64,000 bases of DNA from an uncultured Chromatiales bacterium (GTDB lineage Bacteria > Bacteroidota > Ignavibacteria > SZUA-365): assembly GCA_964635845.1 (NCBI GenBank), contig CAZWNO010000004.1:821-64820 (forward strand). Direction: 5' to 3'. The notes under the pieces were generated by a model. The model was given only the letters and a program-made list of their open reading frames with translations, did no database searches and was not told the origin of the DNA. Below are positions 6,808 to 49,180 of this stretch, piece by piece; the stretch's first letter is position 1; each line of letters begins with the position of its first letter. The translations under genes were made by a program, and so were the position numbers.

Positions 6808-6809
6808 GC

Positions 6810-7025
6810 TGTAGGCTTTAAGCTGTAAGCGGAAGGCAAGAAGGCAGAAGTGTAGCTTCGTTATGCCGATTGGACGCCCTGGGAGCGGCGCGCACCAGCG
6901 CGCGGTAGCCAGGTACCGCGGTGTTGATGGTGAAGGCTGGACGCAGAAGTGTCGCTTCGTCATGCCGAGTGGTCGCCCTGAGTCCGCCTGAGGCGGACGA
7001 AGGGTGACCGTATCGAGGCACGGCA
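6810..7025. repeat. Cluster of degenerate intergenic repeats (GTCATGCCG family plus an inverted copy of the 29.1 kb hexamer repeat)
   Basis: gaagtgtagcttcgttatgccgattggacgccctg and gaagtgtcgcttcgtcatgccgagtggtcgccctg are two related copies. gaccgtatcgaggcacggcag at 7005..7025 matches the 3' half of the 40-bp repeat at 10724 and 12099. Confidence 0.6.
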
Positions 7026-10629: not shown

Positions 10630-10722
10630 GCGATAGGCGATAGGCGGTTGGCGGCAGGCAGTGGGCAGCAGGCGGCAGGCAGTGGGCAGCAGGCGGCAGG
10701 CAGTGGGCAGCAGGCGGCAGGC
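10628..10722. repeat. Tandem repeat, 21-bp unit ggcagcaggcggcaggcagtg, about 3.5 copies, preceded by gcgatagg x2
   Basis: Direct reading of the sequence. Confidence 0.8.
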
Positions 10723-10723
10723 C

Positions 10724-10763
10724 GTCATGCCGGGCAGGTCGCGAAGCGACCGTATCGAGGCAC
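10724..10763. repeat. 40-bp repeat gtcatgccgggcaggtcgcgaagcgaccgtatcgaggcac (copy a), abutting the ATG of the next gene
   Basis: Identical copy at 12099..12138 and a partial copy at 7005..7025. Contains a small hairpin gtcgc-gaa-gcgac. Confidence 0.8.
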
Positions 10764-12050
10764 ATGAAACAAGGTACCATTGAAATGAAGAAAATACAGA
10801 TAGATAATTCGAATTTCGAACTCTTCGACATGCCGACACGCGAAGATACGAAGGATGGAAACGGAAGTCCCGCTCGCGGCAGCCACAGCCTGGTCATTCA
10901 TCCCCGGTCCGGCAGCGTGCTGTCGAAGGAGGAAAAACAGTTCAACCGCCTCACCAGGGAGATCGCGGATCTCCAGCGACGGATCGGGGAGAGGACGGTC
11001 GAACTGGACAAAATACTCGACCTCTACCATGCGCGGTTGTATCCGCTGCGGAAGGAGGGCGCGGAACTGGATATCGAATTCGCCCGCCTCATCGCCACTG
11101 CGGCGCGGACGATGCGCTTCGGGAAGAACCAGGTGGAACGCGTCCGATACTTCATCCGGGATCTGTTCGAGAACGCGTTCGTCCTCGTCGAGCCCGATCC
11201 CGATACAATCGCCCTGTACGACGCGTGGGCGGAGGTCCTCGACGAGGAGGAGAAGAAGGAAACCCTCAATGCAATGAAAATCAGCATCGAGGAGTATGCG
11301 AGAGAAATGTTCGGTATGGACCTCGACATTTCGGAGAAGGAGCTTTCGGAACTCGACGGGAGTCCCGAATCCTACGCCCGCTTCCTGAGCCGTCTCATCG
11401 AACAGATGAGCGGGAAATCCTGGGAGGATATGCCTCCGGAACGCCCGCGCCGGAAAACGGCGAAACAGCTCGCCGCGGAAGAACGGAAACGAACGGAAGC
11501 CCTGGCAGAGGCGCGTAACACCCGCGCGATCTATCTTTCGCTCGCCAAGGCGCTGCATCCCGACCTCGCTGTCGACAACGACGATCGCACGCGGCGCGAG
11601 CAGCTCATGCGGCAGGTGACCGCGGCGTACCAGGCAGGCGATATGACGGCGCTGCTCCGACTCGAAATGGAATGGGTCGCCCGGGAAGACGGCGGACTGC
11701 ACCGCATGCCCGAGGAAACACTGCGCTCCATGATCTCCGCGCTCAAGACGCAGGCGGCCGTGCTTCGTGACGAACTACGCGGACTCCCGTACCATCCCCG
11801 TTACGAGCTGCTCGAACGATACGCGGAGATGTCCACCCAGAGAGCGATAAACGCGATCGAACGCGATATGCGAGCATACGATGATCAGATCGACAACAAT
11901 CGCGCGCTGCTGGAATCGATCGGACCGAAACCGACGAAGAAGACGATCATGGAACTGGTGGACGCCGCGGAAGAAGCGGCATCCCAGGACTATTTCTTCG
12001 AGGACATCATCCGGGAGTATGCATCAGGCTTGAAGAAGCGTCACCGGTGA
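10764..12050 (+). CDS. Hypothetical coiled-coil protein with an internal J-domain-like segment (HPD motif)
   Basis: RAIYLSLAKALHPDLAVDNDDRTRREQLMRQVTAAYQAGD resembles J-domain helices II-III with the HPD tripeptide. GC3 supports this frame over the antisense ORF 10725..11702. Confidence 0.45.
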   Translation: MKQGTIEMKKIQIDNSNFELFDMPTREDTKDGNGSPARGSHSLVIHPRSGSVLSKEEKQFNRLTREIADLQRRIGERTVELDKILDLYHARLYPLRKEGAELDIEFARLIATAARTMRFGKNQVERVRYFIRDLFENAFVLVEPDPDTIALYDAWAEVLDEEEKKETLNAMKISIEEYAREMFGMDLDISEKELSELDGSPESYARFLSRLIEQMSGKSWEDMPPERPRRKTAKQLAAEERKRTEALAEARNTRAIYLSLAKALHPDLAVDNDDRTRREQLMRQVTAAYQAGDMTALLRLEMEWVAREDGGLHRMPEETLRSMISALKTQAAVLRDELRGLPYHPRYELLERYAEMSTQRAINAIERDMRAYDDQIDNNRALLESIGPKPTKKTIMELVDAAEEAASQDYFFEDIIREYASGLKKRHR

Positions 12051-12098: not shown

Positions 12099-12152
12099 GT
12101 CATGCCGGGCAGGTCGCGAAGCGACCGTATCGAGGCACGGTCCCTCGATACG
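12099..12152. repeat. 40-bp repeat copy b, extended by an inverted repeat cgtatcgagg/cctcgatacg that forms a hairpin
   Basis: Identical to 10724..10763. It lies just after the stop of the J-domain gene and is a direct repeat with copy a. Confidence 0.8.
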
Positions 12153-17137: not shown

Positions 17138-17166
17138 TTGACAAAGGTATCTGGAATCTGTATAAT
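17138..17166 (+). promoter_or_regulatory. Consensus sigma70-type promoter (TTGACA, 17-bp spacer, TATAAT)
   Basis: ttgaca at 17138..17143, spacer aaggtatctggaatctg, tataat at 17161..17166. About 100 nt upstream of the ATG at 17274. The leader contains hairpins gaacc-gcaaga-ggttc and ggctc-gtgat-gagcc. Confidence 0.6.
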
Positions 17167-17273
17167 GGGCGCAAGCAGTCATTACAGTTCGACCCAGGAG
17201 GAACCGCAAGAGGTTCGGAGCTTCTGTTGATAGCAATCAAGGCTCGTGATGAGCCTGGGAGTAAAAGACTGAA

Positions 17274-18428
17274 ATGAAAATGAAGCGGTATCCGGCTGGA
17301 CCGGTCGCTCTCTTCGCGATCGCGGCGATGGTTGCCCTCGTGGCATGCTCGAATTCCAGCGAGCCCCCGCTCCCGCCCGATCCCGGAATCGTCGACACCA
17401 CGACGCATGACTACAGTTGGGAGTACCATTTCATCGATGCCCCGCGGGGTGAAATCAATTTCCTGCGCGACATCCAGATCGTGGACGAGGACGATATCTG
17501 GTTTGTCGGGGAGATCTATACCGACACGCTGAATTACAGTATCCCGCATCGCAAAACCATCAGATTCCTTAACACAATCCATTGGAATGGAGCAACTCTT
17601 TCAGGTTATTCGTATGAATCGATCGTAGCAAGCGGGGAGGTGGAGAGGGCTAATTTCTATGCCTTGGCCAATCGGCGACGCACAAAGTATTTAATCTCGG
17701 GTCTTGGCATTACCGAATTGAACGACGATACGATTGTGTTTCACGACATGCGGATTTTGAATGGGAAGTGGTACGGATTTGAAATGGCGAGTACCGAAGC
17801 CAGTGGGAAGATGTTCATTTACGGACTCCCCGGATTCCTGGCAGAACTGGTGCAGGCGGGGCCGCTCCAACCTATCGGGATTCGGCAGATTCCGCTCCCC
17901 ACTCAAGCTCCGGTGCGTGCATTCGTCGAAGTAAACGAGCAGGAATACTTCATCGGCGTGTATTCCGACGAGACGGGGGAACATCACTGGTATCACTCCA
18001 AGGATGGAATGCTGCTCGAGTATTCGTTCTCCGCGGTCGGCGTTTACAGCCGCGATTATTGTACTGCGCTGTGGGCGAGCGATGACAAGTTGTTCGCGAC
18101 CAGTACGCCCTTCCTGTTCGTCCAGTCGCTCGCGGATACATCGGACAGGGTGTTCGTCAATTTTCTGGACGATCTCGGACGGTCATCGGTAGGACGCATC
18201 GAGAAGATGACGGGGCGCGCGAACAATGACATTTTTTTCGTCGGCCAAGTGTCGACGGTAATGCATTACAACGGAAAGACTTTCCACGTTTATGACGAAA
18301 TAGCCGAAAGGGCATCGATGAGCCGTTTCTGGGATGTCACAATCGCAGGTGACAAGGTGTACATCGTCGGTGTCCGGGAATTTGGAGGACAATATCAAGC
18401 TGTACTTATAATCGGTACGAAACAATAG
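17274..18428 (+). CDS. Hypothetical lipoprotein
   Basis: Signal peptide and lipobox AMVALVAC|SNS. No recognisable catalytic motif. Confidence 0.55.
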   Translation: MKMKRYPAGPVALFAIAAMVALVACSNSSEPPLPPDPGIVDTTTHDYSWEYHFIDAPRGEINFLRDIQIVDEDDIWFVGEIYTDTLNYSIPHRKTIRFLNTIHWNGATLSGYSYESIVASGEVERANFYALANRRRTKYLISGLGITELNDDTIVFHDMRILNGKWYGFEMASTEASGKMFIYGLPGFLAELVQAGPLQPIGIRQIPLPTQAPVRAFVEVNEQEYFIGVYSDETGEHHWYHSKDGMLLEYSFSAVGVYSRDYCTALWASDDKLFATSTPFLFVQSLADTSDRVFVNFLDDLGRSSVGRIEKMTGRANNDIFFVGQVSTVMHYNGKTFHVYDEIAERASMSRFWDVTIAGDKVYIVGVREFGGQYQAVLIIGTKQ

Positions 18429-18440
18429 ACGCTTCTCAGT

Positions 18441-19508
18441 TTGAGCCCTAGAACGAACGTCATATTGCTTGCGGCATTGGTACTGATACTCCCGACGGCC
18501 TGCGAGGACGAGCACGGACTCGCTCCACCTGACGCTCCTTGCGCTTCGTGCGATACCTGCAACAACCTGAAACTGCCGCCCACAGGTCCTTGGTACCAGG
18601 ATGGCGAAATCGTTCCCGCCGTGCAGGACACGTATCGGGGGAAAATGTCGCCGGACGGAAGGTATCTCGCGTTTCTCGGGGGCAATTCGGATTACAGGAA
18701 CGACGAAAGGACCTATCCGATCAGCGGACTGGTGGTGCAGGATGTGGCTACGAAGCGCGTGCTGCACTTCTTTCTGGGATTTTACAGCTGGTTTTCCTGG
18801 CATCCCGATGCGAAGCATCTGTATTATGTAGAGAGTTCGATACTTCGCAGATTGAATGTACAAACAGGCGAAAACGTTCGCTACGACAGCCTTGGGCATT
18901 GGGAAGGGGTGGAGGTGACTGGTTCCGGTAGGTTCATCTATTTATCAGGCTATAGAGACGGAAATGCCAGGAATGGTATCTGGCGATGCAAGGAAGACGG
19001 ATCCGAAATTTTCTTCGTAACGGATGATGCAGTGTTCAAATGGAACTACGTGACGGCCGATGATTCGCTGCTGTGCGCATTGAATCTCGGAAAAACTGCT
19101 CATCCCGAAGGCGTATACTTTCTGAACGTCTTGACCGGATCCATGCGGTTCATAGGGATTCCCTCTCTCCATGAACAATTTTACGCATCAAGTCACCGGG
19201 GATTGTTATCGAGAGATGGAAAGTTGATCCTGTTCCAACCATATGTGGAGGACAAGAAACTCAACGACGGATATGCCGATGCGGGAGTCTGGCTACTCGA
19301 TCTCGAAAGCCTGCGTTTGCGGCAGGTGTTGCCGAAGCACCTCCATTACCGGTTCCGCTTTCGGAATCCACAATGGTGCACGGACCGAACCTTCATCGCC
19401 GATTGGCTGTGTGTGAAGGACTCAACGGTATCCTTGTATGAATACTCGCTGGACGGCCGTCCGCTGAGAAGATTGACGGACAGGAATCTCCGATTCTGGG
19501 AGAAATAA
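18441..19508 (+). CDS. Hypothetical lipoprotein with TolB-like beta-propeller repeats
   Basis: Lipobox LILPTAC. Repeated SPDGRYLAF and DGKLILF blades. Confidence 0.5.
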   Translation: MSPRTNVILLAALVLILPTACEDEHGLAPPDAPCASCDTCNNLKLPPTGPWYQDGEIVPAVQDTYRGKMSPDGRYLAFLGGNSDYRNDERTYPISGLVVQDVATKRVLHFFLGFYSWFSWHPDAKHLYYVESSILRRLNVQTGENVRYDSLGHWEGVEVTGSGRFIYLSGYRDGNARNGIWRCKEDGSEIFFVTDDAVFKWNYVTADDSLLCALNLGKTAHPEGVYFLNVLTGSMRFIGIPSLHEQFYASSHRGLLSRDGKLILFQPYVEDKKLNDGYADAGVWLLDLESLRLRQVLPKHLHYRFRFRNPQWCTDRTFIADWLCVKDSTVSLYEYSLDGRPLRRLTDRNLRFWEK

Positions 19509-20142: not shown

Positions 20143-20151
20143 TTCCATCTG

Positions 20152-20820
20152 TCATTTGTCATCTGTCATATTTCCGTTCTCGGTATGACGGGTGATGACG
20201 GCTTTCCTCTCGGTGAATGTATTCAGTTCCTCGTGGATCCTCGCGCGGAGGGAGCGGCGGACGCGAATGGTGTAGCGCGTGTCGTCGAGATAGGCGCGGT
20301 CGAGCACCTCGACGCCGTGCAGTTCGAGGACGTGATGTACCTGGCTGGTGACGTCGTAGGGGAAGGTGATGAGGAAGGTTTCGGTGAGATGGCGGCGTTC
20401 GATCACGCAGCGGGAGAGCACGGCGTCGGCGGCGTCGGTGTAGGCGCGGGCGAGTCCACCCACGCCGAGCTTCGTGCCGCCGAAGTAGCGCACGACCACG
20501 ATGCCGACGTCGGTCAGTCCGAGACGGTCGATGGCGCCGAGAATGCGCCTGCCCGCGGTGCCGCTCGGCTCGCCGTCGTCGCTGTAGCGGAATTCCATAC
20601 CTTCATATCCGATGCGCCAGGCGAAGCAGTGATGCGTCGCGTTGTAATGCTCCCGGCGCAGGGCATCGAGCGCGGTGGTGAACGTCCCCGCGTCGCCGCA
20701 GGGGATCGCGTAGGAAAGGAAGCGCGATCCGACTATCTTTATTTCCGTATCCTCGCGTCCGGCGACGGTCAGGAAGGAATCATCCGGGGAACTGTGGTGT
20801 TGCTGGTCTGGAGGCGGCAC
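20152..20820 (-). CDS. yigZ: IMPACT/YigZ family protein (UPF0029)
   Basis: GSRFLSYAIP..HHCFAWRIG..DDGEPSGTAGRRIL..VVVVRYFGGTKLGVGGLARAY. Confidence 0.8.
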   Translation of the reverse strand: MPPPDQQHHSSPDDSFLTVAGREDTEIKIVGSRFLSYAIPCGDAGTFTTALDALRREHYNATHHCFAWRIGYEGMEFRYSDDGEPSGTAGRRILGAIDRLGLTDVGIVVVRYFGGTKLGVGGLARAYTDAADAVLSRCVIERRHLTETFLITFPYDVTSQVHHVLELHGVEVLDRAYLDDTRYTIRVRRSLRARIHEELNTFTERKAVITRHTENGNMTDDK

Positions 20821-20890: not shown

Positions 20891-22012
20891 ATGAAAATCG
20901 GCATTACCTGTTATCCCACCTACGGCGGCAGCGGCGTCGTCGCGACGGAACTGGGCCTCGCGCTCGCGGACCGTGGCCACGAGGTGCACTTCATCACCTA
21001 TGACCGGCCGTTCCGCCTCGATCATTTCCATGACCGCGTGTACTTCCACGGCGTCGAGATCAGCGCGTACCCGCTGATCGAATTCGACCTGTACACGCTC
21101 GCGCTGACGAGCAAGCTCGTCGAGGTCGTGCGGTTCGAAAAGCTCGACATCCTCCACATGCACTACGCGATCCCGCACGCGGTCAGCGCCTACCTCGCCC
21201 GGCAGATCCTGGGTGTCGACAACATCAAGACCGTCACCACGCTGCACGGGACGGATTCGACGCTCGTGGGACTCGAACCATCCTTTCTCCCGCTCATGCG
21301 CTTCGCGCTGCAGCATAGCGACGGCGTCACGGCGGTGTCGCGCTTCCTCCGCGACAAGACGCTGAGCACCTATCAGCTCGACGTGGATATCGAGGCCATC
21401 CCGAACTTCATAGACACGGAAGTCTACGCGCCGCGCGAGTCCTGCCGCTACCGTGAACTCTTCGCTCCGGACGGCCAAAAGGTGATCGTCCATACGTCGA
21501 ATTTCCGCCCGGTCAAGCGCGTGCAGGATGTGATCCGCACGTTCGCGAAAGTCCGCGAGCAGATTCCCGCCAGGCTTCTCCTGATCGGCGACGGTCCCGA
21601 TCGAACGGATTGCGAGGTGCTGTCGCGCGAACTGCATGTGCAGGACGACGTCCGTTTCCTCGGCAAGCAGGACGCGCTCGTCGACATCCTCACCGCCTCC
21701 GATCTGTTCATGCTGCCGAGCCAGTCCGAGAGTTTCGGACTGTCCGCCCTCGAAGCCATGAGCTGTGGACTGCCCGTCATTTCCACCAGCATCGGCGGCA
21801 TTCCGGAAGTGAATCTCCACGCGGAAACCGGCTATATCGCCGAGATCGGAGACGTCGACCGCATGGCCCGCTACGCCGTCGAACTGCTCTCGAACGAGGC
21901 GCGGTACGCCATGTTCTCGAAGGCCGCGCGCCGCCGCGCGGTGGAGGTCTTCGACAAGCACATCATCGTCCCCCGGTACGAAGCATACTACGAGCGTATC
22001 CTCGGGCGGTAA
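20891..22012 (+). CDS. bshA: N-acetyl-alpha-D-glucosaminyl L-malate synthase (bacillithiol biosynthesis glycosyltransferase), GT4
   Basis: MKIGITCYPTYGGSGVVATELGLALADRGHEVHFIT..HYAIPHA..TTLHGTD..GKQD..ESFGL..EAM is collinear with B. subtilis BshA. Confidence 0.8.
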   Translation: MKIGITCYPTYGGSGVVATELGLALADRGHEVHFITYDRPFRLDHFHDRVYFHGVEISAYPLIEFDLYTLALTSKLVEVVRFEKLDILHMHYAIPHAVSAYLARQILGVDNIKTVTTLHGTDSTLVGLEPSFLPLMRFALQHSDGVTAVSRFLRDKTLSTYQLDVDIEAIPNFIDTEVYAPRESCRYRELFAPDGQKVIVHTSNFRPVKRVQDVIRTFAKVREQIPARLLLIGDGPDRTDCEVLSRELHVQDDVRFLGKQDALVDILTASDLFMLPSQSESFGLSALEAMSCGLPVISTSIGGIPEVNLHAETGYIAEIGDVDRMARYAVELLSNEARYAMFSKAARRRAVEVFDKHIIVPRYEAYYERILGR

Positions 22013-22542
22013 GCCATCTGGAGTCAGGAACAAGGACTTTCCGCACCTTCACACTGTTGCCGAAGAAGTGATGGATCGGGTGGTGATTACTTTCGGTGAC
22101 GGTCTGGTCCGGGGCCAGGGAGCGGCCGAATGACCCCAAGGTAGAGCGTGAGATTATTGCCATGAGCCGGAGCCCGGGAAAGACGACCACAGGGATAATC
22201 CCGGCTGCGGCACATAATGGATTCCGTTTGTCGCAATTAGAACAGATGCGAATCATAAAAAGATAAAATTATTTATTTAAAGGTAAACAGCAGGGAAACG
22301 ATACGCATCGCCGTATGTATGTCCATGGAATTGCACGACTTAGAGAGCAAGAATGTCCGGGTGGGCGAGAACACTTTATCAGACGAACAAGTAGGGAATT
22401 GATTTCAGGTATTGACAAAGTCTGGGCAGGCTGATTATCATTACACCAATAAGATCCGTAACACCCCTTCTCGGAGGACAGGTCGAGTGCCCGGAGAATC
22501 CCCCGGAAACAGACTGAGCTTTTGCGGTTCACCGTACGCCTG

Positions 22543-22730
22543 AACCGTCGAGCCGCGAGAACCGTCGAGCCGTGAGAACTGTCGAGCCGCGAGAACTGTC
22601 GAGGCATGAGAACCGTCGAGCTGCGAGAACTGTCGAGCCGCGAGAACTGTCGAGGCATAAGAACCGTCGAGCTGCGAGAACTGTCGAGCCGCGAGAACTG
22701 TCGAGCCGCGAGAACTGTCGAGCCGCGTGA
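22543..22730. repeat. Tandem repeat, 17-bp unit gagaacYgtcgagcYgc, about 11 copies, in the 5' leader of the gene at 22754
   Basis: Direct reading. Unit length is not a multiple of 3. The ORFs 22269..22802, 22441..22782 and 22529..22786 are repeat artefacts. Confidence 0.85.
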
Positions 22731-22753
22731 TCCAATGCAAAGGAAAAACAAGT

Positions 22754-24862
22754 ATGCAGCACAAAATATCGACGAAGCGCAACCACGTAATAATTTTAAC
22801 AACGCTGTTGATGCTTATTCTGGTAGTTGGTGCGCCGCGTCTAAATGCTCAATGGAATGCAGTTGAGCTTGCGTATGGCGGCAGTGTTCTGGATGCGATT
22901 CAGAGTACCGATAAAGGCATGTATATATTGACCGAAAGGGGCGGTATTTATACGCTTGATAAAGAAGGAACTACATGGATATATTTATGTAAATACGATA
23001 TTACAGATCCTATTGCTCTGCATTTATTCTCGGCGAATCCGAGGGCTATATACTGTTTTAGGGAAAGCATATATATATACGATCGAAAGCTGGGTATCTG
23101 GAGCGACCTGGAAACGAATAAGGTAAGCGCACTACCGGTAAAATCTGCATCAGTACTTTCAGATAGCATCATTATTTTTACGGATGGCCAGGAGGTCTTC
23201 AAGTCAACGAACTCTGGCGCATCCTGGGAAGTTGTTTTACACCATGCGCCTCTCGGATTAGACTGGATTTCGGCAATTACAGTGAACGCGAACAATACTG
23301 TCTACCTTACAGCGGAAGACACGACGTATATTTCGAACGATGGAGCTGCGAGTTGGAAAAAAATATATAATAATATGAAATTATACATTAACATCGCATA
23401 TAGGGTAAGTCGCACGATATTCCCTGTCGGAACGACGTCAATATGCAAGATTACGGAAAATGGAATTTTATTGTACTCCGATATAGACGAGGAGTGGGCC
23501 GGTGTATTTAATACTGCGGGTATGAATGCCAGACCTACGATCTTCGCAATAGACAGTTCGATATTCTGTTTTCAACGAATTTCCGACGAATTCATGATTT
23601 ATCGCAGCACTGATTGGGGTAGATCCTGGGATTCAACAGCTATCGCGTCCTTCGCTTTCGCTTTTCCGTACATCTTCGGTAGCAACGAGAGAAATCTGTA
23701 TGTAACGGATTATAGAAATTGTGTGGTAAGCATAAATGATGGGAATGGCAGTATGGCATATATGATGACTGGAATATCGGAACTTTCTACAAGATTAATC
23801 GCCGCGGAGAACCGAAGAGTACACACAAGGAGCAGCACTTTGGATGTTCATAGGGGATCTTCTGATAGCGCATTTCTTTATAATATCACAGGGCCGTGGC
23901 CTGCACGGGATATATACCTCACAACAGAAGGAGACGTTATCAGATTGGAGACGTCTATCATAGAGAAAACTACAGACGGGGGAGAAAAATGGATTGATGT
24001 GGGTGAGATTCAAAACTGGGACGCATATTTTGAAAAAACGGAAAGCGCGATTTATCTGGCAGGCAGGTATGGGGTATATTCGCTCAATACTAGAAATAAA
24101 AATATAAGAGATCTGTCGGATTCGGCGACATATCGTGTTGCCGTGAATTCACAGAAGGTTGTTACTGCAGTCACATACAGCTCGTATATTTTGATCATTC
24201 GTGAAGCGGAGGAGATATATAAAATTGATGCCAGGAATATCAATGAGTTGGTTGACGACATTTTGATATTTGACGATAATACACTGCTTTTGGCGGCTGG
24301 TGAAGAGTTGTACAGAGGTTATGGCGAAATGGGGACTTGTGTACGATTGGAGGAAGAAACATTTGATGCAACAGAAAAAATGTTGTTGCATGAGTCAGGA
24401 ATGATTTTTTCGTTGTCAAAGCAAGGCGGAGTGCAATATTCATCAGACACCGGGCGCAGCTGGATTGCAATTGACATTTCGAGTCTGGGAGCGGAAGTGA
24501 GAGATCTGGCCATTGATGATATGTTTTTATATGTATGCACCAGGGGCGCAGGGGTACATATGATGAATATTTCCAGCCTCATATTAGATGTTGATGAAGA
24601 CGCATATGATAAGAGGACGGAAAATATATTGGTATATCCTAACCCGGCGTCGACGCAGTTGACAATCCTCGGTATCAATGATTGCGATTCGCGGATAACC
24701 ATTACTTTATCAGATATAATGGGTCGTAAATTATATGTTAGGAATACCGGTAATTGTTCACCAGGTACAATCAACGTTGACAGCATGATCCCTGGTATAT
24801 ACATCATAACGATAGAGAAGAATAATTATCCCGTTGGCTCGCAGTTGGTAATAATTGAATAA
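22754..24862 (+). CDS. Secreted BNR/Asp-box repeat tandem beta-propeller protein (GH74/sortilin-like fold) with a T9SS C-terminal domain
   Basis: Signal peptide MQHKISTKRNHVIILTTLLMLILVVGAPRLNAQ. Repeated SxDxGxxW blocks (STNSGASWEV, SNDGAASWKK, STDWGRSWDS, TTDGGEKW). C-terminal YPNPASTQLTIL..PGIYIITIE. GC is about 40%. Confidence 0.65.
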   Translation: MQHKISTKRNHVIILTTLLMLILVVGAPRLNAQWNAVELAYGGSVLDAIQSTDKGMYILTERGGIYTLDKEGTTWIYLCKYDITDPIALHLFSANPRAIYCFRESIYIYDRKLGIWSDLETNKVSALPVKSASVLSDSIIIFTDGQEVFKSTNSGASWEVVLHHAPLGLDWISAITVNANNTVYLTAEDTTYISNDGAASWKKIYNNMKLYINIAYRVSRTIFPVGTTSICKITENGILLYSDIDEEWAGVFNTAGMNARPTIFAIDSSIFCFQRISDEFMIYRSTDWGRSWDSTAIASFAFAFPYIFGSNERNLYVTDYRNCVVSINDGNGSMAYMMTGISELSTRLIAAENRRVHTRSSTLDVHRGSSDSAFLYNITGPWPARDIYLTTEGDVIRLETSIIEKTTDGGEKWIDVGEIQNWDAYFEKTESAIYLAGRYGVYSLNTRNKNIRDLSDSATYRVAVNSQKVVTAVTYSSYILIIREAEEIYKIDARNINELVDDILIFDDNTLLLAAGEELYRGYGEMGTCVRLEEETFDATEKMLLHESGMIFSLSKQGGVQYSSDTGRSWIAIDISSLGAEVRDLAIDDMFLYVCTRGAGVHMMNISSLILDVDEDAYDKRTENILVYPNPASTQLTILGINDCDSRITITLSDIMGRKLYVRNTGNCSPGTINVDSMIPGIYIITIEKNNYPVGSQLVIIE

Positions 24863-24945
24863 TCGAGCGCAATATCGTTTGTGTCACAGCCTCGAAATCA
24901 GTATTACGGATCAAATATGAGCACGCCATGGCTCGAATAGAACAA

Positions 24946-25407
24946 TTCGTTGGCAAACATCACGCGCTGATTCTTCACGTCCGCCACGACACTGACGTAG
25001 CGATGAACCCGGCTACGCGACATCTCATCGATCGCGATCGCCGTCACATCGTCAAAATCCTCGCGCTCCCGCGTACGTCCAACGTGGTGGTCAAGTATGC
25101 ACTACAGACGCGTGTCACTTTCCCGCACCTGTCGCGCGATGGCAGCGACCGGCATCTGCGGCTCCATGCTCATGACCAGGGCTTCGAAGAGCAATGTGAA
25201 ACCACTGCTCGTCCGCGCCCAAGGGACATGGACATGCAAGACGCCACATCGTTCGCAAATAAATCGGGGAACGCGGGCATGGAGGTAGCAGACATGTTGG
25301 AAGAAGTCAATATGATGCCATTGTTTCTCGACCGTGTCATGCTGCGGAAGGTCCGCAGCAGCACAGATCGGACAGATGAACAGGCGGTCCACCGGGAAGT
25401 CCAGCAA
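24946..25407 (-). pseudogene. ISL3-family transposase remnant A (N-terminal ~150 codons including the zinc finger; C-terminal DDE part absent)
   Basis: MLDFPVDRLFICPICAAADLPQHDTVEKQWHHIDFFQ..RCGVLHVHVPWARTSSGFTLLFEALVMSM matches the ISL3 Tnp N-terminus. About 85% identical to 28505..28900. Interrupted by a stop. Confidence 0.7.
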
Positions 25408-25651
25408 AAGATCGAGACAAGACTTATCAGCAGGGAATTCACTGTGCTTGCAGAACCAGGATGGTGTCAGTCCAAGAGCATCGGCGAAGAGCGTTTTGGT
25501 AGGAGAAAGTATGGGTTGATTCGCGCTGTGAAAGATGCCCGAAACCTGCGCAAATCAGGCCATTCACGCTATGCTATCCACGCGAAACAGAGAGGAGCCA
25601 GCGCTGTCCTAGACAGCGCCGTAGTCAGGCAATATTATTACATAACACAAT

Positions 25652-27757
25652 ATGCTATATAGAATGAATACGAAAATGCTATTATTAGGAAGTATTTTAC
25701 TAATGCTGATTGTAAGCGGCCAGCGTAGCTTTTCACAAGAGAATTGGAAATGGGTAAATCCGGAACTCACCGGACGTGCATTATTTGATGTATGCAGTGC
25801 CAGTGACAGCGTTATTATAATAGTAGGTCAGGACGGCGAAATACTTCGCTCCAGAGATGGTGGAAGGACATGGCAGAATATTGAAACGGCTGCAATTGAA
25901 GACATCACATCGGTATCGTTTTGCGATAATATGCATGGGATCCTTGTTGGTAAGCAAGGACTGGTTATGTCGACCGAGGATGGAGGTCTTACCTGGAACA
26001 TGAGAGAGTCTATGGTCACTTGGGATTTACAGGCTGTCGCCACTCGAAATGCGAATGTTATTGCTGCTGGTGTTAATGGTACCATTACAAGATCGACAAA
26101 TTACGGAATGGACTGGGTTAATATCTCTTTGATGACAATAGATGATATAACAGGAATCGATTTCATTGATGATACAACTATAATAATGGTAGGTTTATCT
26201 GGATTAATCAAGCTATCAACGGATTTCGGAAAAGGATGGGTAGCCATCCAGCCCCCAGTCGAAAGGGATTTTTTTTCTGTCGCATTTTCTGATGAAAAGA
26301 CAGGAATTATCGGCGGCTCATATGGATTACTCGGTACGACTGATGGAGGCATATCCTGGTTCATAATAGAAGACGAAGTATTAAAAAGAATAAATAGTGT
26401 TTCCGATGCAGGTGACGGCAATTTCATAGCTGTTGGAGTTGTTGGTGCTATAAAAATGGGTAATATGAGTATTTCGAGTTGGCGAGAGATTAGTGAATGG
26501 GATGATGTCGATCTAACTGGAGTTAAGTACGTAAATGATAGTATTATTGTATGCGTCGGATTCTATGGTGAGATACTTGTTTCGCGTAATGGAGGTGAGA
26601 GTTGGGCAAGAGGAAATAAAGGAGTCAGATCGAGACTAAGAGACATTACTTTGTTCGAGTCTTACTCGGGTTGCATCGTTGGTAATGACGGTACCGTGAT
26701 CATAACCGATGATGATGGCGAGACATGGGTTCCCATTGATGCAGGTATTGCATGGAATTTGAAGGCGGTAGAGTATGTTGGAAATGATGGATTATTTGCC
26801 TCTGGAACGCAAGGCATTATCAGGTCGAATGATGCGGGGTTAACCTGGAGCGATGTTCTTTTGGGCTCGGAAGAAAGTATTAATAGTATATTTTTTACCG
26901 ATATGGAGGCAGGCTATGCGGTGGGGGACAATGGTGCTATGATACGGACGATCGATGGCGGATTGTCGTGGGTTAGGATGGGTACGAATTTAAACCAAAG
27001 TCTACATGATATATACTTTAAAAGTAAGGATACTGGTGTACTTGTGGGTAATTATGGAATTATCGAGATCACGTATAATGGTGGTGACACTTGGAACAGC
27101 ATTGGAGATGAGCTCGAAGATATTCACTTGACGTCTGCGGTAATAAGTGAGGAGGGAATTGTGGTAGCAGTTGGACGGGATTCGCGAGTATGTATATCTC
27201 ATGATTATGGTGCAAGTTGGGACTTTCAAGATATACGTGGTGTATCTGTGATGCAAAAAGTTATCATTCTCGCGGATAATAGCTATGCAATATGTACCAC
27301 ATTAGGAAAAGTATTCCGTTCAATTAATTTAGATGGCGAATGGCAAGACATGAAGACGGGAATACGAAATACATTACATTCGCTTGCGTGTAATTCGTCT
27401 GGTTATTTGTACGCTGTCGGAGAAGGTGGTACGATTGTCAGAACAAATACAAAGATATTGGAAATAGAGGACATCCCAGGAGATGACTTTTCAGGAGCAG
27501 TTACTGCTGAGGTGTATCCATTCCCAATAGTAGCTGACAAAGTCCGGATCCGACTACCGAAAATCGTAGTGAATGGAATAGCAACAATATTTATACATGA
27601 CCTTGCCGGCCGACTGATTTGGCGATGTGTGGCAACTTTCGATGGATATGGCGGGCTGGAAGCGGAAATAAACATCCCGAATTTGAAACCAGGGATATAT
27701 TATTCAAGAATATATGTTGATAATAAAAACTATTTTGCAAAAATGATTGTCGAATGA
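25652..27757 (+). CDS. Secreted BNR/Asp-box repeat tandem beta-propeller protein (Ycf48/GH74-like) with a T9SS C-terminal domain, paralogue of 22754..24862
   Basis: At least 11 S/TxDGGxTW blades (SRDGGRTWQNIE, STEDGGLTWNM, TTDGGISWFII, SRNGGESWARG, TIDGGLSWVRMG and others). Signal peptide. C-terminal KPGIYYSRIYVDNKNYFAKMIVE. Confidence 0.65.
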   Translation: MLYRMNTKMLLLGSILLMLIVSGQRSFSQENWKWVNPELTGRALFDVCSASDSVIIIVGQDGEILRSRDGGRTWQNIETAAIEDITSVSFCDNMHGILVGKQGLVMSTEDGGLTWNMRESMVTWDLQAVATRNANVIAAGVNGTITRSTNYGMDWVNISLMTIDDITGIDFIDDTTIIMVGLSGLIKLSTDFGKGWVAIQPPVERDFFSVAFSDEKTGIIGGSYGLLGTTDGGISWFIIEDEVLKRINSVSDAGDGNFIAVGVVGAIKMGNMSISSWREISEWDDVDLTGVKYVNDSIIVCVGFYGEILVSRNGGESWARGNKGVRSRLRDITLFESYSGCIVGNDGTVIITDDDGETWVPIDAGIAWNLKAVEYVGNDGLFASGTQGIIRSNDAGLTWSDVLLGSEESINSIFFTDMEAGYAVGDNGAMIRTIDGGLSWVRMGTNLNQSLHDIYFKSKDTGVLVGNYGIIEITYNGGDTWNSIGDELEDIHLTSAVISEEGIVVAVGRDSRVCISHDYGASWDFQDIRGVSVMQKVIILADNSYAICTTLGKVFRSINLDGEWQDMKTGIRNTLHSLACNSSGYLYAVGEGGTIVRTNTKILEIEDIPGDDFSGAVTAEVYPFPIVADKVRIRLPKIVVNGIATIFIHDLAGRLIWRCVATFDGYGGLEAEINIPNLKPGIYYSRIYVDNKNYFAKMIVE

Positions 27758-28155
27758 GCGCTCATAGCTCTGACATGATGTGTTGAATTGAGCGTCGTCG
27801 ATTTAGGATGTAATATCGATGCAGTTTTGCTGCAAAATAGCGATTAACACGCAAAATATCGATCAGAGCCTTGCCGCGCCCCTCTCTGTCAGGATAGTTG
27901 ACCTTGCGCTGTGAAGTCAGAACTACATCAGTAGCGACGTCAAGTTGCACCTGTGATAAGGTTGGGCCCCTTGATATCGCCGATCAAACAGAGGTATTAA
28001 ACAGGTCTTAGCTGCATCTTTCAAGAGCAGGTGTGTTGAGCGTCAGGAGAAAAGTCGGAAGGCGTATTCGGTCAGGTACGAACGGTTAAGACGAACGTAA
28101 GTCAACCATCGAAGAAGTATCGAGAGCAGCATTCGCCGTCGAAACCGGGATTTAG

Positions 28156-28900
28156 TCATTGTCCCGGGACAAGATGGGAGGGAGCCTGAGTTCTTTTCCA
28201 TTGACACGCGGCATGAAAGTGGCGTGAGAATCGTTCAGGCGCTGGTACGGAACATGGGAATCTGCATACCGATGTCAAGTCAGCCATCCAAGCGGCAATC
28301 CTGTGAGGATCTGAAAATAAAAAGAGGTATGCAGAGGGGGACCGGTCGAAGGTGATTTCCGCATCCGGCAGAGACTCCGCCACTCCAGCGACGAAGGCCG
28401 GCGACATGTCCATGCTGACATGCTTGATCGTGTGAGCCGTGCCGCCATGCGCCTCGAAGTCCGCGGCAAACCGCTCGATGACGTTCTGTCCTTTCCTTTC
28501 GGTGGCAAACAACATGCGCCGCTTCTTCACGTCCGCCACGACACTGACATAGCGATGGCCCAGGCGACGCGACGTTTCATCGATCGCGATCGCCGTCACG
28601 CCGGCAAAATCCTCGCGCTCCCGCGCACGTCCAACATGGTGGTCAAGGATGCGGCACGGACGCGTGTCACTTTCCCGCACCTGTCGCGCGATGGCAGCGA
28701 CCGGCATCTGCGGCTCCATGCTCATGACCAGGGCTTCGAAGAGCAATGTGAAACCACTGCTCGTCCGCGCCCAAGGGACATGGACATGCAAGACGCCACT
28801 GTGCTCGCTACGAATTAAGGGAACGCCGGCATGGGGGTAGCAGACATGTTGGAATAAGTTCATATGACGCGATTATTTCTCGACCGTGTCATGCAGGGAA
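28156..28900 (-). pseudogene. ISL3-family transposase remnant B (internal ~215 codons; frameshifted at the 5' end, truncated at the 3' end)
   Basis: GVLHVHVPWARTSSGFTLLFEALVMSMEPQMPVAAIARQV..TAIAIDETSRRLGHRYVSVVAD..RRMLFATERKG matches the ISL3 Tnp, including the start of the DDE domain. Same orientation as remnant A. Confidence 0.7.
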
Positions 28901-29059
28901 TATCAGCAATGGTCGAAGGCGGTCGGAAGTCGAGACATGCCGGCGTATCGAGCCACATTCCGTGCCTTTCACAGCCCTTCGATACGGTCGCCGAGGCGAC
29001 CTATTCGGGCAGACGCACTGCTGCCAACAGCCCGCTACGTCGGGTCTGCGACAAACGGC

Positions 29060-29210
29060 CAACAACCATAAGCTTAAGGCTTAAAGCTTAAAGCCTACAG
29101 CCTACAGCTTACAGCTTACAGCCTACAGCCTACAGCTTACAGCCTACAGCCAAAAGCCCAAAGCCAACGGCCAACTGCCAACTGCCAACTGCCAAAAGCC
29201 AACTGCCATC
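29060..29210. repeat. Simple-sequence region of hexamer tandem repeats (gcttaa / agccta / cagctt / ccaact variants)
   Basis: Direct reading. An inverted short copy lies at 6810..6830. Confidence 0.8.
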
Positions 29211-29326: not shown

Positions 29327-31846
29327 GTGAATCCACGCCCATTCATCACGCTTCCGCTCCTCCTGACGGCCGTACTCCTCCTGCAGGGCTGCGCGGTCTG
29401 GGAATTCGTCGACACGCGCTGGCAGAATGCGACAGGGTACTTCAACACGTATTACAACGCCGCGAAGCTCTACGACGAAGCGGAGGCGGAGATCGAGAAG
29501 AATCAGGCCAGCCGGACCATCGATCCGAACCAGGGATCGGTGGAAATGGAGCCCGCGATGGCGGATGGAGTCCCGGGCGAGGAATCGGACGTGCCCAAGG
29601 AAAAGATGCATCGCCAGATCGCGATGATGGAAACCGGCGCGCCTTCGACCGCGATCATGAAACTGGACAAGGTGATCGAAAAGGGATCCCGCATCCTTGT
29701 CAACTATCCGAAAAGCAAGTGGGTCGACAACGCCCTGCTGCTCATCGGGAAGAGCTACTATCACAAGTCAGAGGCCCTGCGCGCGGAGCGGAAATTCCAG
29801 GAATTGCTCGACAGGTACCCCGAGAGCAGCCTCGTTCCCGAAGCCATCCTCTGGCTGGGGAAAACCTACGTGCGGCTGGAAAAATACGAGACCGCGGAAG
29901 GCCTGCTCGACCGCGCGATCGAGGAAGCGGTGCGCGAAGGCGAACCCGATATCGCGGCCGCAGCCTATTTCGAACTCGGGAAAATGTACCTGCTTCAGGA
30001 CAACCGCGCCGAAGCGGTGAAGAAATACGAGCAGGCCGTCGACTTCGCGAGCGACGAGGACCGGCGGATGCAGATCCAGCTCGCCCTCGCGCGCGAATAC
30101 GAACGGCTCGGCGAAAAGGAGAAGGCGGCGAAAGCCTACCGGGACATCTTCAGGCTGGATCCGAGCACCGAGCTGGCATTCATCGCGGAACTGAATTACG
30201 CGAAACTCTCGCGTGAACTCGGGGATCTCGACGAGGCCAGCAACACGCTGATCAACATGCTCGACAATCCCCTCTATCTCGACTACGACGGGCAGATCCA
30301 GCTCGAGATCGGCAACCTGTACTACGCCTACCACAAGCGCTATGCGCTGGCCGGCGATACGCTGGCACGCGATGCGTTCGCGGCCGCCATGGACCAGTAC
30401 AGCTTCGTCGACACGACCTTCAAGGGAAAGGAAGAAGCGGCGGATGCATCCTTCGCGAAGGGACGGATTTACGAAGAGGACATCAAGGATTACGACAACG
30501 CGTTCCAGAACTACAACAACGCCAAGCTGGCGTTTCCGGGTGCGGCGTCCGCGCGGCTTTCCACCCATAAGGCGAAGGTCTTCGGAGAATACCGCAAACT
30601 GCGGAACCAGATCAGCATGAAGGACACGACGCTGTTCTTCGTGCTCAATCCCGACACGCTGCGGCTGCGCGATTCGCTTCGCGTCATCTCCGATTCGCTC
30701 GACCGCGAACGCCGCAAGGCCGAAGGACTCGATGAGAAGCTGATGACGGAGGAGCAGCGGATGGCCGAGCGCTTCCGCCGCCGCCGGCCGCACGGACGCA
30801 ACACGGGCCGTATCAATCCATGGCTGCGGGAAACCGAGAAACAGCAGGTGGCGATGGCGGCCGGCCTGAAGGCCACCGAACAGGCCGTCGCGGTCTCGGG
30901 TCCGGAATACCGGCGCATCAATCTCCGCCAGACGGATCCCGACTCGCTGCGTACCGTGCTCGCCGAACTCTATATGGAAATGGGATGGCAGATGTACGAC
31001 CAGATAGGGAACATCGACTCCGCCCGCCACTACTATCAGAAGGCGCTCGACAACAGGCTCTCCGATTCGCTGCGTCCCCAGGCCGTCTATACGATGGCCG
31101 CCATCGAGCGGAAGGCAGGCAACGAGAGCGAAGCCGTCGCGCTGGAGGACCGCCTGATCCGTGATTATCCCTTCAGCCGCTATGCGCATGGGATCATGCA
31201 GCTGCGCGGCATCCCTCTCCCCAAGGATTCGACCTCTCTCGCGATCGAAGCGTACGAGCAGGCGGCGCGTGTACTCGAACGGGGCGACCGCGAAACCGGT
31301 GTCACACTGATGCGGGCGGTGATGCAGGATTTCCCCGATAGTGATCAGGCGCTGCGGGCGAAACTTGCCATCGCGATGCTCTACGAAGAATATCGCGGCG
31401 ACGAAGCCCTCGCCATGTACAAGGAGATGGTGGCGGAGCATCCCGATTCCCGTTACAGCAAGCGGGGGAAAGAGATCCTCGCGGCGATCGAGAATTTCGA
31501 GAAGGATGCCGTTCGGCGGCAGAAGGAAGCGGAAGCGAAGGCGGAAGCGAATCGTATCGCGGAGGAGGAGCGGAAGCGCAAGGAGGCGCGCTTCCAAAAT
31601 CCGCTTCTGGACGAAGAACTGAAAGTCATGCGCGACTCCGTCCGCTCGCGGGAGCCGAAGATCGATCCCTCGCGCGACAAGGATTTCCCTCTCCGCCTGC
31701 CGGGCGAGGATCCCGTGCGCGACACCACGGAGGCGAAGCCGCTCTTCGTTCCGGACAGGAATCCCGGGAGCATCCGTCAGCCGGGAACGATTCCCGGAGG
31801 CGACACGCTCCGGCGACTCCCCCCACCCCAAAAGCTCGAGAAATGA
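29327..31846 (+). CDS. Tetratricopeptide-repeat lipoprotein with a Lys/Glu-rich C-terminal region
   Basis: Lipobox LLLQGC. Multiple TPR-like 34-aa helical repeats (YFNTYYNAAKLYDEAE..). C-terminal charged low-complexity segment. Confidence 0.6.
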   Translation: MNPRPFITLPLLLTAVLLLQGCAVWEFVDTRWQNATGYFNTYYNAAKLYDEAEAEIEKNQASRTIDPNQGSVEMEPAMADGVPGEESDVPKEKMHRQIAMMETGAPSTAIMKLDKVIEKGSRILVNYPKSKWVDNALLLIGKSYYHKSEALRAERKFQELLDRYPESSLVPEAILWLGKTYVRLEKYETAEGLLDRAIEEAVREGEPDIAAAAYFELGKMYLLQDNRAEAVKKYEQAVDFASDEDRRMQIQLALAREYERLGEKEKAAKAYRDIFRLDPSTELAFIAELNYAKLSRELGDLDEASNTLINMLDNPLYLDYDGQIQLEIGNLYYAYHKRYALAGDTLARDAFAAAMDQYSFVDTTFKGKEEAADASFAKGRIYEEDIKDYDNAFQNYNNAKLAFPGAASARLSTHKAKVFGEYRKLRNQISMKDTTLFFVLNPDTLRLRDSLRVISDSLDRERRKAEGLDEKLMTEEQRMAERFRRRRPHGRNTGRINPWLRETEKQQVAMAAGLKATEQAVAVSGPEYRRINLRQTDPDSLRTVLAELYMEMGWQMYDQIGNIDSARHYYQKALDNRLSDSLRPQAVYTMAAIERKAGNESEAVALEDRLIRDYPFSRYAHGIMQLRGIPLPKDSTSLAIEAYEQAARVLERGDRETGVTLMRAVMQDFPDSDQALRAKLAIAMLYEEYRGDEALAMYKEMVAEHPDSRYSKRGKEILAAIENFEKDAVRRQKEAEAKAEANRIAEEERKRKEARFQNPLLDEELKVMRDSVRSREPKIDPSRDKDFPLRLPGEDPVRDTTEAKPLFVPDRNPGSIRQPGTIPGGDTLRRLPPPQKLEK

Positions 31847-31850: not shown

Positions 31851-32702
31851 ATGCCAGTGACCAACGCAGATCCGCCGGAGATCAGCGCCGACCCGCCGGC
31901 AGTCAACGCCGATCCGCCGGCAGTCAACGCCGACCTGCGGGTGACGGCGATTGAAGCGATCGCGGAAGACACCTGGGCGCTGCGTTTCCGCAGTCCGGAA
32001 CTCGCGGCGCGGCTGCGGCCGGGACAGTTTCTCAACATCCGCACCAGCGATCAGCTCGATCCTCTGCTGCGCCGTCCGTACAGCATTTCCGATGTGATCG
32101 GGGACGAATGCGAGATCCTGTTCTCCCTCGTGGGGAAGGGCACGCACGCCCTCTCGCACAAACAGCCCGGTGATCATATCGGAGTCCTGGGTCCGCTGGG
32201 CAACACCTTCGGTTACGCGAAGTCCTTCGGCACGGCCCTGATCGTGGCGGGCGGCATCGGCGTCGCGCCGTTTCCCTTTCTGACGAAAGAACTGCGCAAG
32301 CGCGAAATTCCGTTCATCACCTTTCTCGGAGCGCGCAGTGCGGCACGCGTGGTCTCGCGCGGACTCGCCAGTCGGCACATCGCAACCGACGATGGCAGCA
32401 TGGGATTCCACGGGACGGTGGTCGCCGCGCTCGGGGAATACCTCGATGCGCATCCGGTCGATGGTCCGATGATCTTCGCCTGCGGTCCGAATCCCATGCT
32501 GCGGGCAGTCCAGCAGTTCGCCCATGAACGCGGGATCGCGTGCGAGCTTTCGCTCGAATCGGAAATGGCCTGCGGCATCGGCATCTGCCAGGGCTGTCCG
32601 GTCGAACGCCATCAGGGCAAGCGCAAATATGCGCTGGTCTGCACCGAGGGACCCTGCTTCGATTCGCACGACATCATCTTTCACGGGCATCACCACGCAT
32701 GA
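31851..32702 (+). CDS. pyrK: Dihydroorotate dehydrogenase electron-transfer subunit
   Basis: LRRPYSISD (FAD site), GPLGNTF, ALIVAGGIGVAPF, FACGPNPML. C-terminal CGIGICQGCPV..C is the 2Fe-2S cluster motif. An alternative in-frame GTG start at 31941 would put the 21-bp x3 repeat (ADPPAVN x3) in the leader. Confidence 0.8.
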   Translation: MPVTNADPPEISADPPAVNADPPAVNADLRVTAIEAIAEDTWALRFRSPELAARLRPGQFLNIRTSDQLDPLLRRPYSISDVIGDECEILFSLVGKGTHALSHKQPGDHIGVLGPLGNTFGYAKSFGTALIVAGGIGVAPFPFLTKELRKREIPFITFLGARSAARVVSRGLASRHIATDDGSMGFHGTVVAALGEYLDAHPVDGPMIFACGPNPMLRAVQQFAHERGIACELSLESEMACGIGICQGCPVERHQGKRKYALVCTEGPCFDSHDIIFHGHHHA

Positions 32703-34701: not shown

Positions 34702-34762
34702 GCGGGAATGCAGGAATAACCAATCGGGAATGCAGGAATAACCGATCGGGAATGCAGGAATA
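34702..34762. repeat. Tandem repeat, 22-bp unit cgggaatgcaggaataaccaat, about 3 copies, just upstream of the SDR gene
   Basis: Direct reading. Confidence 0.8.
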
Positions 34763-34773
34763 GCGGAGCGGGT

Positions 34774-39783: not shown

Positions 39784-39832
39784 GCCAAGCAGCGCGGCCG
39801 GGCAGCGCGGCCGGGCAGCGCGGCCGAGCATA
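39784..39832. repeat. Tandem repeat, 15-bp unit cagcgcggccgggca, about 3 copies, directly after the stop codon
   Basis: Direct reading. Confidence 0.8.
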
Positions 39833-49114: not shown

Positions 49115-49180
49115 TGCCTCGCACCTGCCGATGCCTCGCACCTGCTGATGCCTGGCGTCTGCTGATGTCTGGCGCCTGGA
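49100..49180. repeat. Tandem repeat, ~17-bp unit cacctgcYgatgcctcg, about 4.5 copies, overlapping and following the argH stop
   Basis: Direct reading. Confidence 0.8.

Follow-up and report, generated by a model that had tools for sequence, protein, structure and literature searches.

The window analysed here is a 64-kb stretch of DNA that carries a low-GC insertion of ~6.9 kb (22013 to ~28920) between bshA (TIGR03999, 538 bits), the gene upstream of it, and a gene encoding a TPR protein. The insertion is missing from the relatives L003, L083, and L084, in which bshA is followed after 190–255 bp by a ~839-aa TPR protein corresponding to window positions 29327–31846; nucleotide identity is ~77% for L003 and 85–94% for L083 and L084. 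BLAST breakpoints fall at 22011/22012 and 29222, and a REP-like hairpin and heptamer array at ~28930–29208 have orthologous counterparts in the spacer of L083. Because this orthologous spacer resumes beyond ~28920, the right end of the insertion was placed there, an approximate edge set at the end of an ISL3 fragment.

GC content is ~42% in the island against ~61% in the host; a 17-bp tandem array within the island is host-like in GC although the island is AT-rich and absent from three relatives. A 412-bp copy of the ISL3 5′ fragment lies on the reverse strand (24946–25357, 89% identity to 28498–28908), and the two ISL3 copies bracket a second BNR gene (25652–27757, forward strand), whose 701-aa product is identified by profile searches as a clear BNR protein, a BNR/Ycf48-like propeller with a T9SS sorting domain. 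A group II intron D1–D4 fragment (27958–28077, forward strand; RF01999, 54.5 bits against a gathering score of 36) represents mobile-element debris, and a truncated ISL3 transposase gene (28156–28863), detected by profile searches, forms the right edge of the island together with an IS end (28156–28908 in all, reverse strand). Neither profile searches nor PADLOC models detected a regulator, replication-initiator (rep), or defense gene in the island. The original prediction had described a horizontally acquired island; absence from L003, L083, and L084, the GC difference, and the IS fragments all support a genuine insertion that was probably acquired horizontally.

Within the island, the gene here called BNR1 (22754–24862, forward strand) starts at ATG 22754, where it had been predicted to start, and encodes a 702-aa protein with a signal-peptide-like N-terminus (MQHKISTKRNHVIILTTLLMLILVVGAPRLNA/QW). 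Domain searches detected a C-terminal T9SS sorting domain (PF18962, residues 627–700, 38.3 bits against a cutoff of 27; TIGR04183, 32.9 against 23), which by curated cut-offs identifies the product as a putative T9SS cargo. The earlier description of a T9SS-secreted BNR protein therefore stands for the T9SS domain, whereas the BNR assignment is weak here: the Sortilin-Vps10 signal, at 25.2 bits, is under its cutoff of 33. A search of 5.8 billion clustered proteins returned a single 100% match, the protein itself on one NCBI contig; the next matches are at most 25% identical. These remote homologues carry BNR, Sortilin, or PSII_BNR domains, and since they are its sole relatives, we refer to the protein as an orphan. 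Its gene has a GC3 of 0.43, compared with ~0.78 in host genes. Exact-protein look-ups of the orphan (with either start codon) and of P0001 gave no record, nor did look-ups of this kind reveal a second strain with the island.

Anatomy of the 17-bp array and searches for related repeats

Upstream of the orphan gene, at 22542–22728, a 17-bp unit with the consensus GAACTGTCGAGCCGCGA is repeated head-to-tail in 11 contiguous units (10.9 copies), with no spacers between them. The array was delimited by unit matching and by Tandem Repeats Finder (TRF), which reports it at 22542–22727 with period 17, 10.9 copies, 85% matches, and a score of 274. This is the top TRF score among short-period arrays of the window, the sole higher score (829) belonging to a 261-bp in-gene repeat at 58669–59262, and the array is also the longest intergenic one in the window. 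It lies outside every credible ORF and has the structure by which an intergenic VNTR or minisatellite is defined. The prediction of ~11 copies upstream of the gene was thus borne out; of the span originally given for the feature, 22411–22753, the repeats lie inside but fill only 22542–22728.

Allowing at most three mismatches, the consensus finds 10 in-register matches, where shuffled sequences would give 0.54; the one remaining unit, at 22644, has four mismatches. Read in register, the sequence just 5′ of the array agrees with the unit at no more than 5/17 positions. From 5′ to 3′, the units run A′ A″, B C D, B C′ D, B B B′, with units 3–5 and units 6–8 constituting a 51-bp three-unit duplication whose halves are one substitution apart. 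The 3′ terminal units are identical to one another, and runs of identical consecutive units number three or four at most. The near-identical halves of the 51-bp duplication and the identical 3′ units indicate that the length of the array has been altered recently, in steps of 17 and 51 bp.

The core GAACYGTCGAG occurs 11 times in register and, apart from Y, is invariant in 11/11 units; substitutions between units fall at position 5 and at positions 12–17, nearly all of them at 12–17. This invariance could reflect constraint (e.g. a binding site) or the mere re-amplification of a few variant units. If constraint were responsible, the units might be operator- or iteron-like sites at which a protein binds the core and acts as a roadblock, a silencer, or a titration sink for the island gene. 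Besides the invariant core and the clustering of substitutions at 12–17, the length of the unit would suit such a role, as 17 bp falls within iteron and operator unit lengths. The surroundings, however, make this very unlikely: the island is devoid of a regulator or replication-initiator gene, DnaA boxes are absent near the array, and the core is found at no other promoter in the window, where three one-mismatch matches, all in genes, compare with 3.8 expected. The unit itself has no dyad symmetry, and a 17-bp period would rotate each site by ~220 degrees around the helix relative to the one before it, a poor arrangement for cooperative binding.

In iteron origins, direct repeats of ~17–22 bp adjoin a rep gene and are accompanied by an AT-rich region and DnaA boxes. 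An iteron-type replication origin was rejected as a candidate, there being no rep gene, no nearby DnaA box, and no spacers between the contiguous units.

Searches beyond the locus returned no homologue of the array. Scanning 185,579 species-representative genomes and the JGI metagenome contigs for the exact two-unit pattern GAACYGTCGAGCYGYGAGAACYGTCGAG gave no match, and neither the unit nor its flanks recur elsewhere in the 64-kb window or in 91 loci, save for the same-organism contig L001. A relaxed three-unit pattern recovered seven loci in three families among the metagenome contigs, all of which we regard as chance look-alikes forced by the pattern and not as homologues. Five of these are low-GC contigs with almost no ORFs and many other satellites, probably eukaryote-like DNA; another, with a GC content of 0.61, is unrelated and has an SRPBCC-like ORF on one side of its array and a membrane ORF on the other, and the last, with a GC content of 0.69, was treated as a chance look-alike. 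The dispersed REP-like hairpin element was likewise rejected as kin of the array or of its flank, the similarity score of 17 being no different from the null (17.1 ± 2.2). A literature search on phase variation by 17-bp repeats or on tandem repeats in Ignavibacteria found nothing specific.

These searches bear on whether the array could have been transposed in as a MITE-borne minisatellite with its own promoter, in the manner of BrickBuilt, a minisatellite-MITE of Porphyromonas gingivalis that has 23-nt units and is always intergenic (PMC4596501). The two share a phylum, spacer-less units of ~20 nt (23 against 17), an intergenic position, and an association with a promoter, here a strong promoter-like site 100 nt upstream, and the host-like GC content of the array (61–65%) amid AT-rich flanks (37–48%) would also fit transposition. 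Unlike BrickBuilt, the array has no inverted-repeat ends and no leader or tail modules, the surroundings of array and island gave no relevant inverted repeats, and the array is present as a single copy within the sequence searched, its two-unit pattern being unmatched in the public genome and metagenome scans. We consider an origin by such transposition highly improbable.

The source is apparently a metagenome-derived contig, and mis-assembly of the copy number or of the whole array was therefore weighed. An independent Logan contig (run SRR8925735) agrees at 100% identity from the upstream flank through ~3.6 units and then stops within the array, as is expected of an assembly with k = 31. That break could be taken to point to an artefact, but up to it the contig has the same sequence without exception, and the differences between units make the array resolvable at larger k: the longest exact repeat internal to it is 46 bp, so an assembler with k > 47 can resolve the copy number. 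The chance that the array is an artefact is, in our estimate, minimal.

Promoter candidate and presumptive leader

The promoter candidate for the orphan gene is a sigma-70-like site on the forward strand, TTGACA-18 nt-TATCAT (22412–22441), which matches 11/12 consensus positions and has a predicted TSS near 22448. Its TTGACA occupies 22412–22417, so that the site reported earlier at 22411 does exist but starts one base further on. Sites of this kind matching at least 11/12 positions number two in the 64-kb window against 0.2 expected. The other, at 17138, is a perfect 12/12 match, and its conservation in L083 from the −35 hexamer onward suggests that this lineage uses sigma-70-like promoters. 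As an alternative promoter model, the Bacteroides-type −7 motif TAnnTTTG was dropped, with six found against 7.7 expected and hence no enrichment.

The array starts 100 nt downstream of the −10 element of this candidate, which is the sole promoter-like site near it. The intervening sequence (22442–22541, forward strand) is the non-repetitive 5′ part of the presumptive leader and has no Rfam family; in broader Rfam searches, around the array (E ≤ 1) and over the whole window (gathering threshold), no match at the array was obtained. On its 3′ side, the array is separated from the ATG by a spacer of 25–26 nt (22729–22753, forward strand) with a weak Shine-Dalgarno-like AAGGA at 22740–22744, and no promoter-like site was found in this spacer. 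Nor was a terminator-like site found at 21900–23000, from bshA to the orphan gene.

Since the 26-nt spacer offers no promoter-like site, the mRNA of the orphan gene would have to carry repeat units. We infer that this mRNA starts upstream of, or within, the array, the most likely form of the leader being a ~305-nt 5′-UTR that begins at the 22412–22441 candidate, and that the array is probably transcribed in the 5′ leader. The placement of the repeats in non-coding DNA between a promoter-like site and the ATG, as originally proposed, is in agreement with this arrangement.

The leader RNA is predicted to have little structure. Its fold is no more stable than those of shuffled sequences (z = +1.30) and its centroid structure is almost unpaired, while the array alone folds less stably than all 200 shuffles (z = +2.97).

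Two short ORFs cross the array, one from GTG (22572–22730) and one from ATG (22606–22866) that overlaps the start of the orphan gene. Neither has an acceptable Shine-Dalgarno sequence, GAGG standing 1–2 nt from ATG 22606, and the reading frame upstream of the orphan-gene ATG is interrupted by stop codons. All three minus-strand frames across the array are likewise open, and neither the minus-strand ORFs nor the non-coding sequence at 22013–22545 gave Pfam or NCBIfam matches.

Such ORFs would be the basis of a frame switch, in which changes in unit number shift ORF ends and thereby alter coupling to, or occlusion of, the BNR1 start. The existence of the two ORFs, together with a unit length of 17 that is not a multiple of three, is consistent with this idea, and Streptococcus gallolyticus pil1 provides a precedent, with GCAGA repeats that work as an attenuation switch through a leader peptide and a terminator (PMC3894217). 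The array resembles the pil1 repeats in having a unit not divisible by three in the leader of a surface-structure gene, but unlike them it has no credible leader-peptide start and no downstream terminator stem-loop, and thus neither a terminator nor another stem-loop for a switch to relieve was found. Open frames are, moreover, expected here by chance, most units being stop-free and the minus strand being open too. We accordingly give a frame switch very little credence.

Comparison with known repeat systems

Classical contingency tracts consist of short units (about 1–9 nt) in near-perfect repetition and lie in an ORF or in a −35/−10 spacer, as exemplified by the homopolymer or tetranucleotide tracts of Neisseria, Haemophilus, and Campylobacter. 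The 17-bp array is like these loci in being a potentially hypermutable repeat tract adjoining a surface-protein gene; it differs in its imperfect 17-nt unit and in its position outside the ORF and the −35/−10 spacer, and because of this position no switch of frame or of promoter spacing is possible.

A closer structural parallel can be drawn with Haemophilus influenzae hmw1A and hmw2A, which have heptanucleotide (ATCTTTC)n repeats in their 5′-UTRs; in hmw1A these repeats set the level of the adhesin and act via a long hairpin that is essential and is cleaved by RNase III (PMC12721329). As in hmw1A, the repeats at the locus studied here separate a promoter (a candidate in this case) from the start codon of a gene for a surface protein, would be transcribed in the leader, and can change in copy number while the coding sequence is left intact. 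Unlike in hmw1A, the unit is 17 nt rather than 7, and no complementary region, long hairpin, or evident RNase III target is present.

The hmw1A system, with uspA2, is the type for reading the array as a contingency locus or expression rheostat, in which stochastic change by 17-nt units would tune mRNA stability or translation and make cells of one population differ in a surface or secreted antigen. Pointing in this direction are the strong promoter-like site 5′ of the array, the ATG that follows the array too closely for another promoter to fit in between, the recent unit and three-unit duplications, and the T9SS-sorted product of the next gene. On the other hand, the repeats have no hairpin partner, the z scores being positive for leader and array alike, and the 17-nt unit is repeated at 85% identity. 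Slippage should be slower at imperfect units of 17 nt than at perfect short-unit tracts. Weighing these points along with the genomic context described below, we regard a rheostat as rather unlikely.

Taken as observed, the array lacks the placement and unit size of classical SSR tracts and the structural features of the two documented leader-repeat mechanisms, those of hmw1A and pil1. The original prediction had called the arrangement a classic architecture for phase variation, a description that finds no support in a 17-nt unit outside the ORF and the −35/−10 spacer that is accompanied by no hairpin or terminator and that belongs to a genome in which arrays also stand beside housekeeping genes.

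The array has more in common with bacterial VNTRs, intergenic examples of which include the MLVA loci of Mycobacterium, Yersinia, and Xanthomonas. Shared features are the head-to-tail units of 10–100 bp, the non-coding position, imperfect repetition, and higher-order duplications; orthologous arrays of the same genome, distinct from the 17-bp array itself, also vary in copy number among relatives. Two features depart from this pattern, namely that the island of the 17-bp array has no counterpart in relatives and that the host lineage is unusually dense in arrays. For Mycobacterium tuberculosis, tandem-repeat copy number is reported to be phase-variable (PMC12817950).

Tandem arrays across the window and its relatives

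Counting arrays with a period of at least 6, at least three copies, and a score of at least 50, we found 11 in the 64-kb window (1.72 per 10 kb), whereas the median was 0 in 82 other loci, mostly from related Ignavibacteria-like MAGs; L003, the closest relative, is array-rich too. Eight of the 11 are intergenic, in a fraction that makes up only ~10.5% of the window according to an approximate gene map built from ORFs and GC3 and corrected with Pfam matches and synteny. The base periods of the intergenic arrays are 7, 7, 8, 13, 17, 17, 22, and 23, and those of the three in-gene arrays 15, 18, and 21. Because any period occurs between genes and only 15, 18, and 21 within them, the pattern is as expected from a general tandem-duplication process filtered by reading-frame selection alone.

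The genes adjoining the other arrays are of a housekeeping kind, encoding Pirin, an ABC ATPase, Lyase_1, an SDR, a PyrK-like protein, and DUF116. One pair of arrays (39783–39935) lies between convergent genes, those at 10626 and 49105 begin exactly at a stop codon, and the array at 34702 ends at a start codon. Arrays equivalent to the 17-bp one thus adjoin housekeeping genes and also sit between convergent genes, which counts against the contingency-locus reading. A repeat beside a surface-protein gene is not by itself evidence of phase variation, and this caution weighs more where many housekeeping genes adjoin similar repeats; since such arrays adjoin Pirin, ABC ATPase, lyase, and SDR genes, the adjacency of the 17-bp array to a surface-protein gene is probably incidental.

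Orthologous arrays also differ in length. Relative to L083, the window is longer by 63 nt at 31862, by 64 nt at 34702, and by 219 nt at 38410, and two orthologous heptamer arrays have 3.4 copies in the window against 4.4 in relatives and ~20 against 5. These differences in length and copy number indicate that the arrays of this lineage are labile VNTRs, and their neighbors show no particular tie to surface proteins. Together with the internal 17-bp and 51-bp duplications of the 17-bp array, the differences lend indirect support to a variable copy number at that array.

The explanation we favor, and hold to be probable, is that the array represents a young minisatellite (VNTR) particular to this lineage, situated just upstream of the orphan gene for a T9SS cargo, with an effect on expression that ranges from nil to modest and graded. 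The 11 units would have arisen by replication slippage or unequal recombination in non-coding DNA of the ~6.9-kb insertion, as one case of a genome-wide tendency to accumulate tandem duplications wherever selection allows. In this lineage of uncultured Ignavibacteria-like Bacteroidota, intergenic spacers would tolerate any period and genes only periods divisible by three. Copy number would probably be unstable over evolutionary time and possibly within populations; the mutation rates of 17-bp units are assumed from the general behavior of bacterial VNTRs.

With the array in a presumptive 5′-UTR, adding or removing one unit would leave both reading frame and promoter geometry as they are. All that would vary with the number of units is the length of a leader predicted to be unstructured, for which reason we expect a nil to modest, graded effect on expression and no ON/OFF switch. 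The neutrality of the array is drawn from this context, and the array as it stands is most likely a routine intergenic VNTR.

The array has an invariant core, is the longest intergenic array of the window and the top-scoring one of short period, and directly precedes a gene for a secreted or surface protein, observations that we count against a neutral minisatellite. Genes of this class are those in which contingency loci typically occur.

A more far-reaching possibility, which we judge distinctly unlikely, is that an unstructured, purine-rich 5′-UTR spacer of stochastic length tunes the newly acquired orphan T9SS cargo as a new type of contingency element, and that the gene-boundary arrays of this lineage serve as mutable genome-wide expression "dials" in an environmental bacterium that is not a pathogen. 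To our knowledge, repeat-based contingency regulation is known almost only in host-adapted pathogens with short-unit tracts. If copy number varied in populations and tuned expression, such regulation would be extended in two ways, to an environmental bacterium of the FCB group and to a long-unit leader array. The lineage-wide density of gene-boundary tandem arrays is in itself modestly interesting for the mutational regime. Some tandem expansions of this genome lie in-frame within the N-termini of conserved enzymes.

Mobile-element remains in the island

In the low-GC island, the 5′ portion of an ISL3 element is present in two direct copies (24946–25357 and 28498–28908; 89% identity over 412 bp), one on each side of the second BNR gene, an arrangement suggesting that the island was assembled or rearranged through IS activity. 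Because the 244-aa plus-strand ORF at 24928–25662 overlies an ISL3 fragment, it is probably spurious. Between the truncated ISL3 transposase gene and the second BNR gene, we also identified a plus-strand group II intron D1–D4 fragment (27958–28077), matching RF01999 at 54.5 bits over the full model length. Nearby DNA contains no intron-encoded protein, and the fragment is therefore probably a remnant cut by this IS.

Tandem arrays and a dispersed element in spacers

Intergenic spacers hold heptanucleotide tandem arrays with the units ATAGGCG/GGCAGCA, AGCCTAC/CTGCCAA, and CATCTGT, located in the window at 10626–10722, 29070–29208, 6805–6850, and 20146–20169, and in L083, the locus of a relative lacking the island, at 11237–11271 and 9250–9280. 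Both unit sequence and copy number differ between orthologous arrays of the window and the ∼85–94%-identical relative: the bshA–TPR spacer array has ∼20 copies versus 5 in that relative, and the CATCTGT array 3.4 versus 4.4.

Heptamer arrays adjoin three of the four window copies of a dispersed, intergenic REP-like element (0.13 copies expected), found on the plus strand at 7004–7021, 10746–10763, and 12121–12138 and on the minus strand at 28974–28991. Its sequence, ...CGTCATGCCGGGCAGGTCGCGAAGCGACCGTATCGAGGCACGG.CCCTCGATACGCC..., includes the hairpin GGTCGC-GAAG-CGACC. The element is also present in L083, in 41- and 76-bp tandem arrays (11159–11228, 4896–5094, and 8871–8983).

An intergenic spacer of L003, the closest GTDB relative, contains an inverted pair of tandem octamer arrays, AGAGGCAC in ∼9 copies (892–965) and its reverse complement CCTCTGTG in ∼7.6 copies (1059–1119), which lie face-to-face ∼95 bp apart. 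Arrays of GTCGAGTCACGAGAACT, a unit matching the 17-bp unit of the window at 15 of 17 positions, occur in five JGI metagenome contigs (L085, L087, L088, L090, and L091; GC ∼0.41). This contig family is nearly devoid of ORFs, and the arrays, in 2.6 or 4.5 copies depending on the contig, are surrounded by 11-, 22-, 33-, 36-, and 44-bp satellites. We judged the likeness to be due to chance, the contigs probably being eukaryote-like DNA.

Repeats at gene boundaries and within genes

Two arrays are tandem duplications placed exactly on gene boundaries. A 22-nt array (gcgggaATGcagg..., 3.4 copies; 34702–34776) at the start of an SDR gene includes the start-codon region within its unit, with the real ATG at 34774 closing the array, and another, unrelated array with a 17-nt unit (49105–49178), at the end of a Lyase_1 gene, includes the stop codon within that unit.

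In-frame tandem expansions occur within genes at 31862–31935, 38410–38542, and 52602–52693 (units of 21, 15, and 18 nt, respectively). Two of the three, situated close to the N-terminus of a PyrK-like DHOD subunit and of DUF116, both conserved proteins, are missing in L083 and L003 alike, the window being longer by 63 nt and 219 nt. A 261-bp (87-aa) repeat in 2.3 copies (58669–59262), inside a 1711-aa ORF (56248–61383), is probably a repeated domain of a giant surface protein.

A conserved leader downstream of a consensus promoter

A perfect sigma-70 consensus promoter (TTGACA-17-TATAAT; 17138–17166) is followed by a ∼100-nt leader (17172–17273) that is kept in L083 (5135–5254). The leader had no match in Rfam, and its predicted fold is significantly more stable than those of shuffled sequences (z = −2.96; 0/200 shuffles). 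It is possibly an uncharacterised cis-regulatory RNA. Downstream lie two tandem paralogous orphan genes (17274–18428 and 18441–19508).
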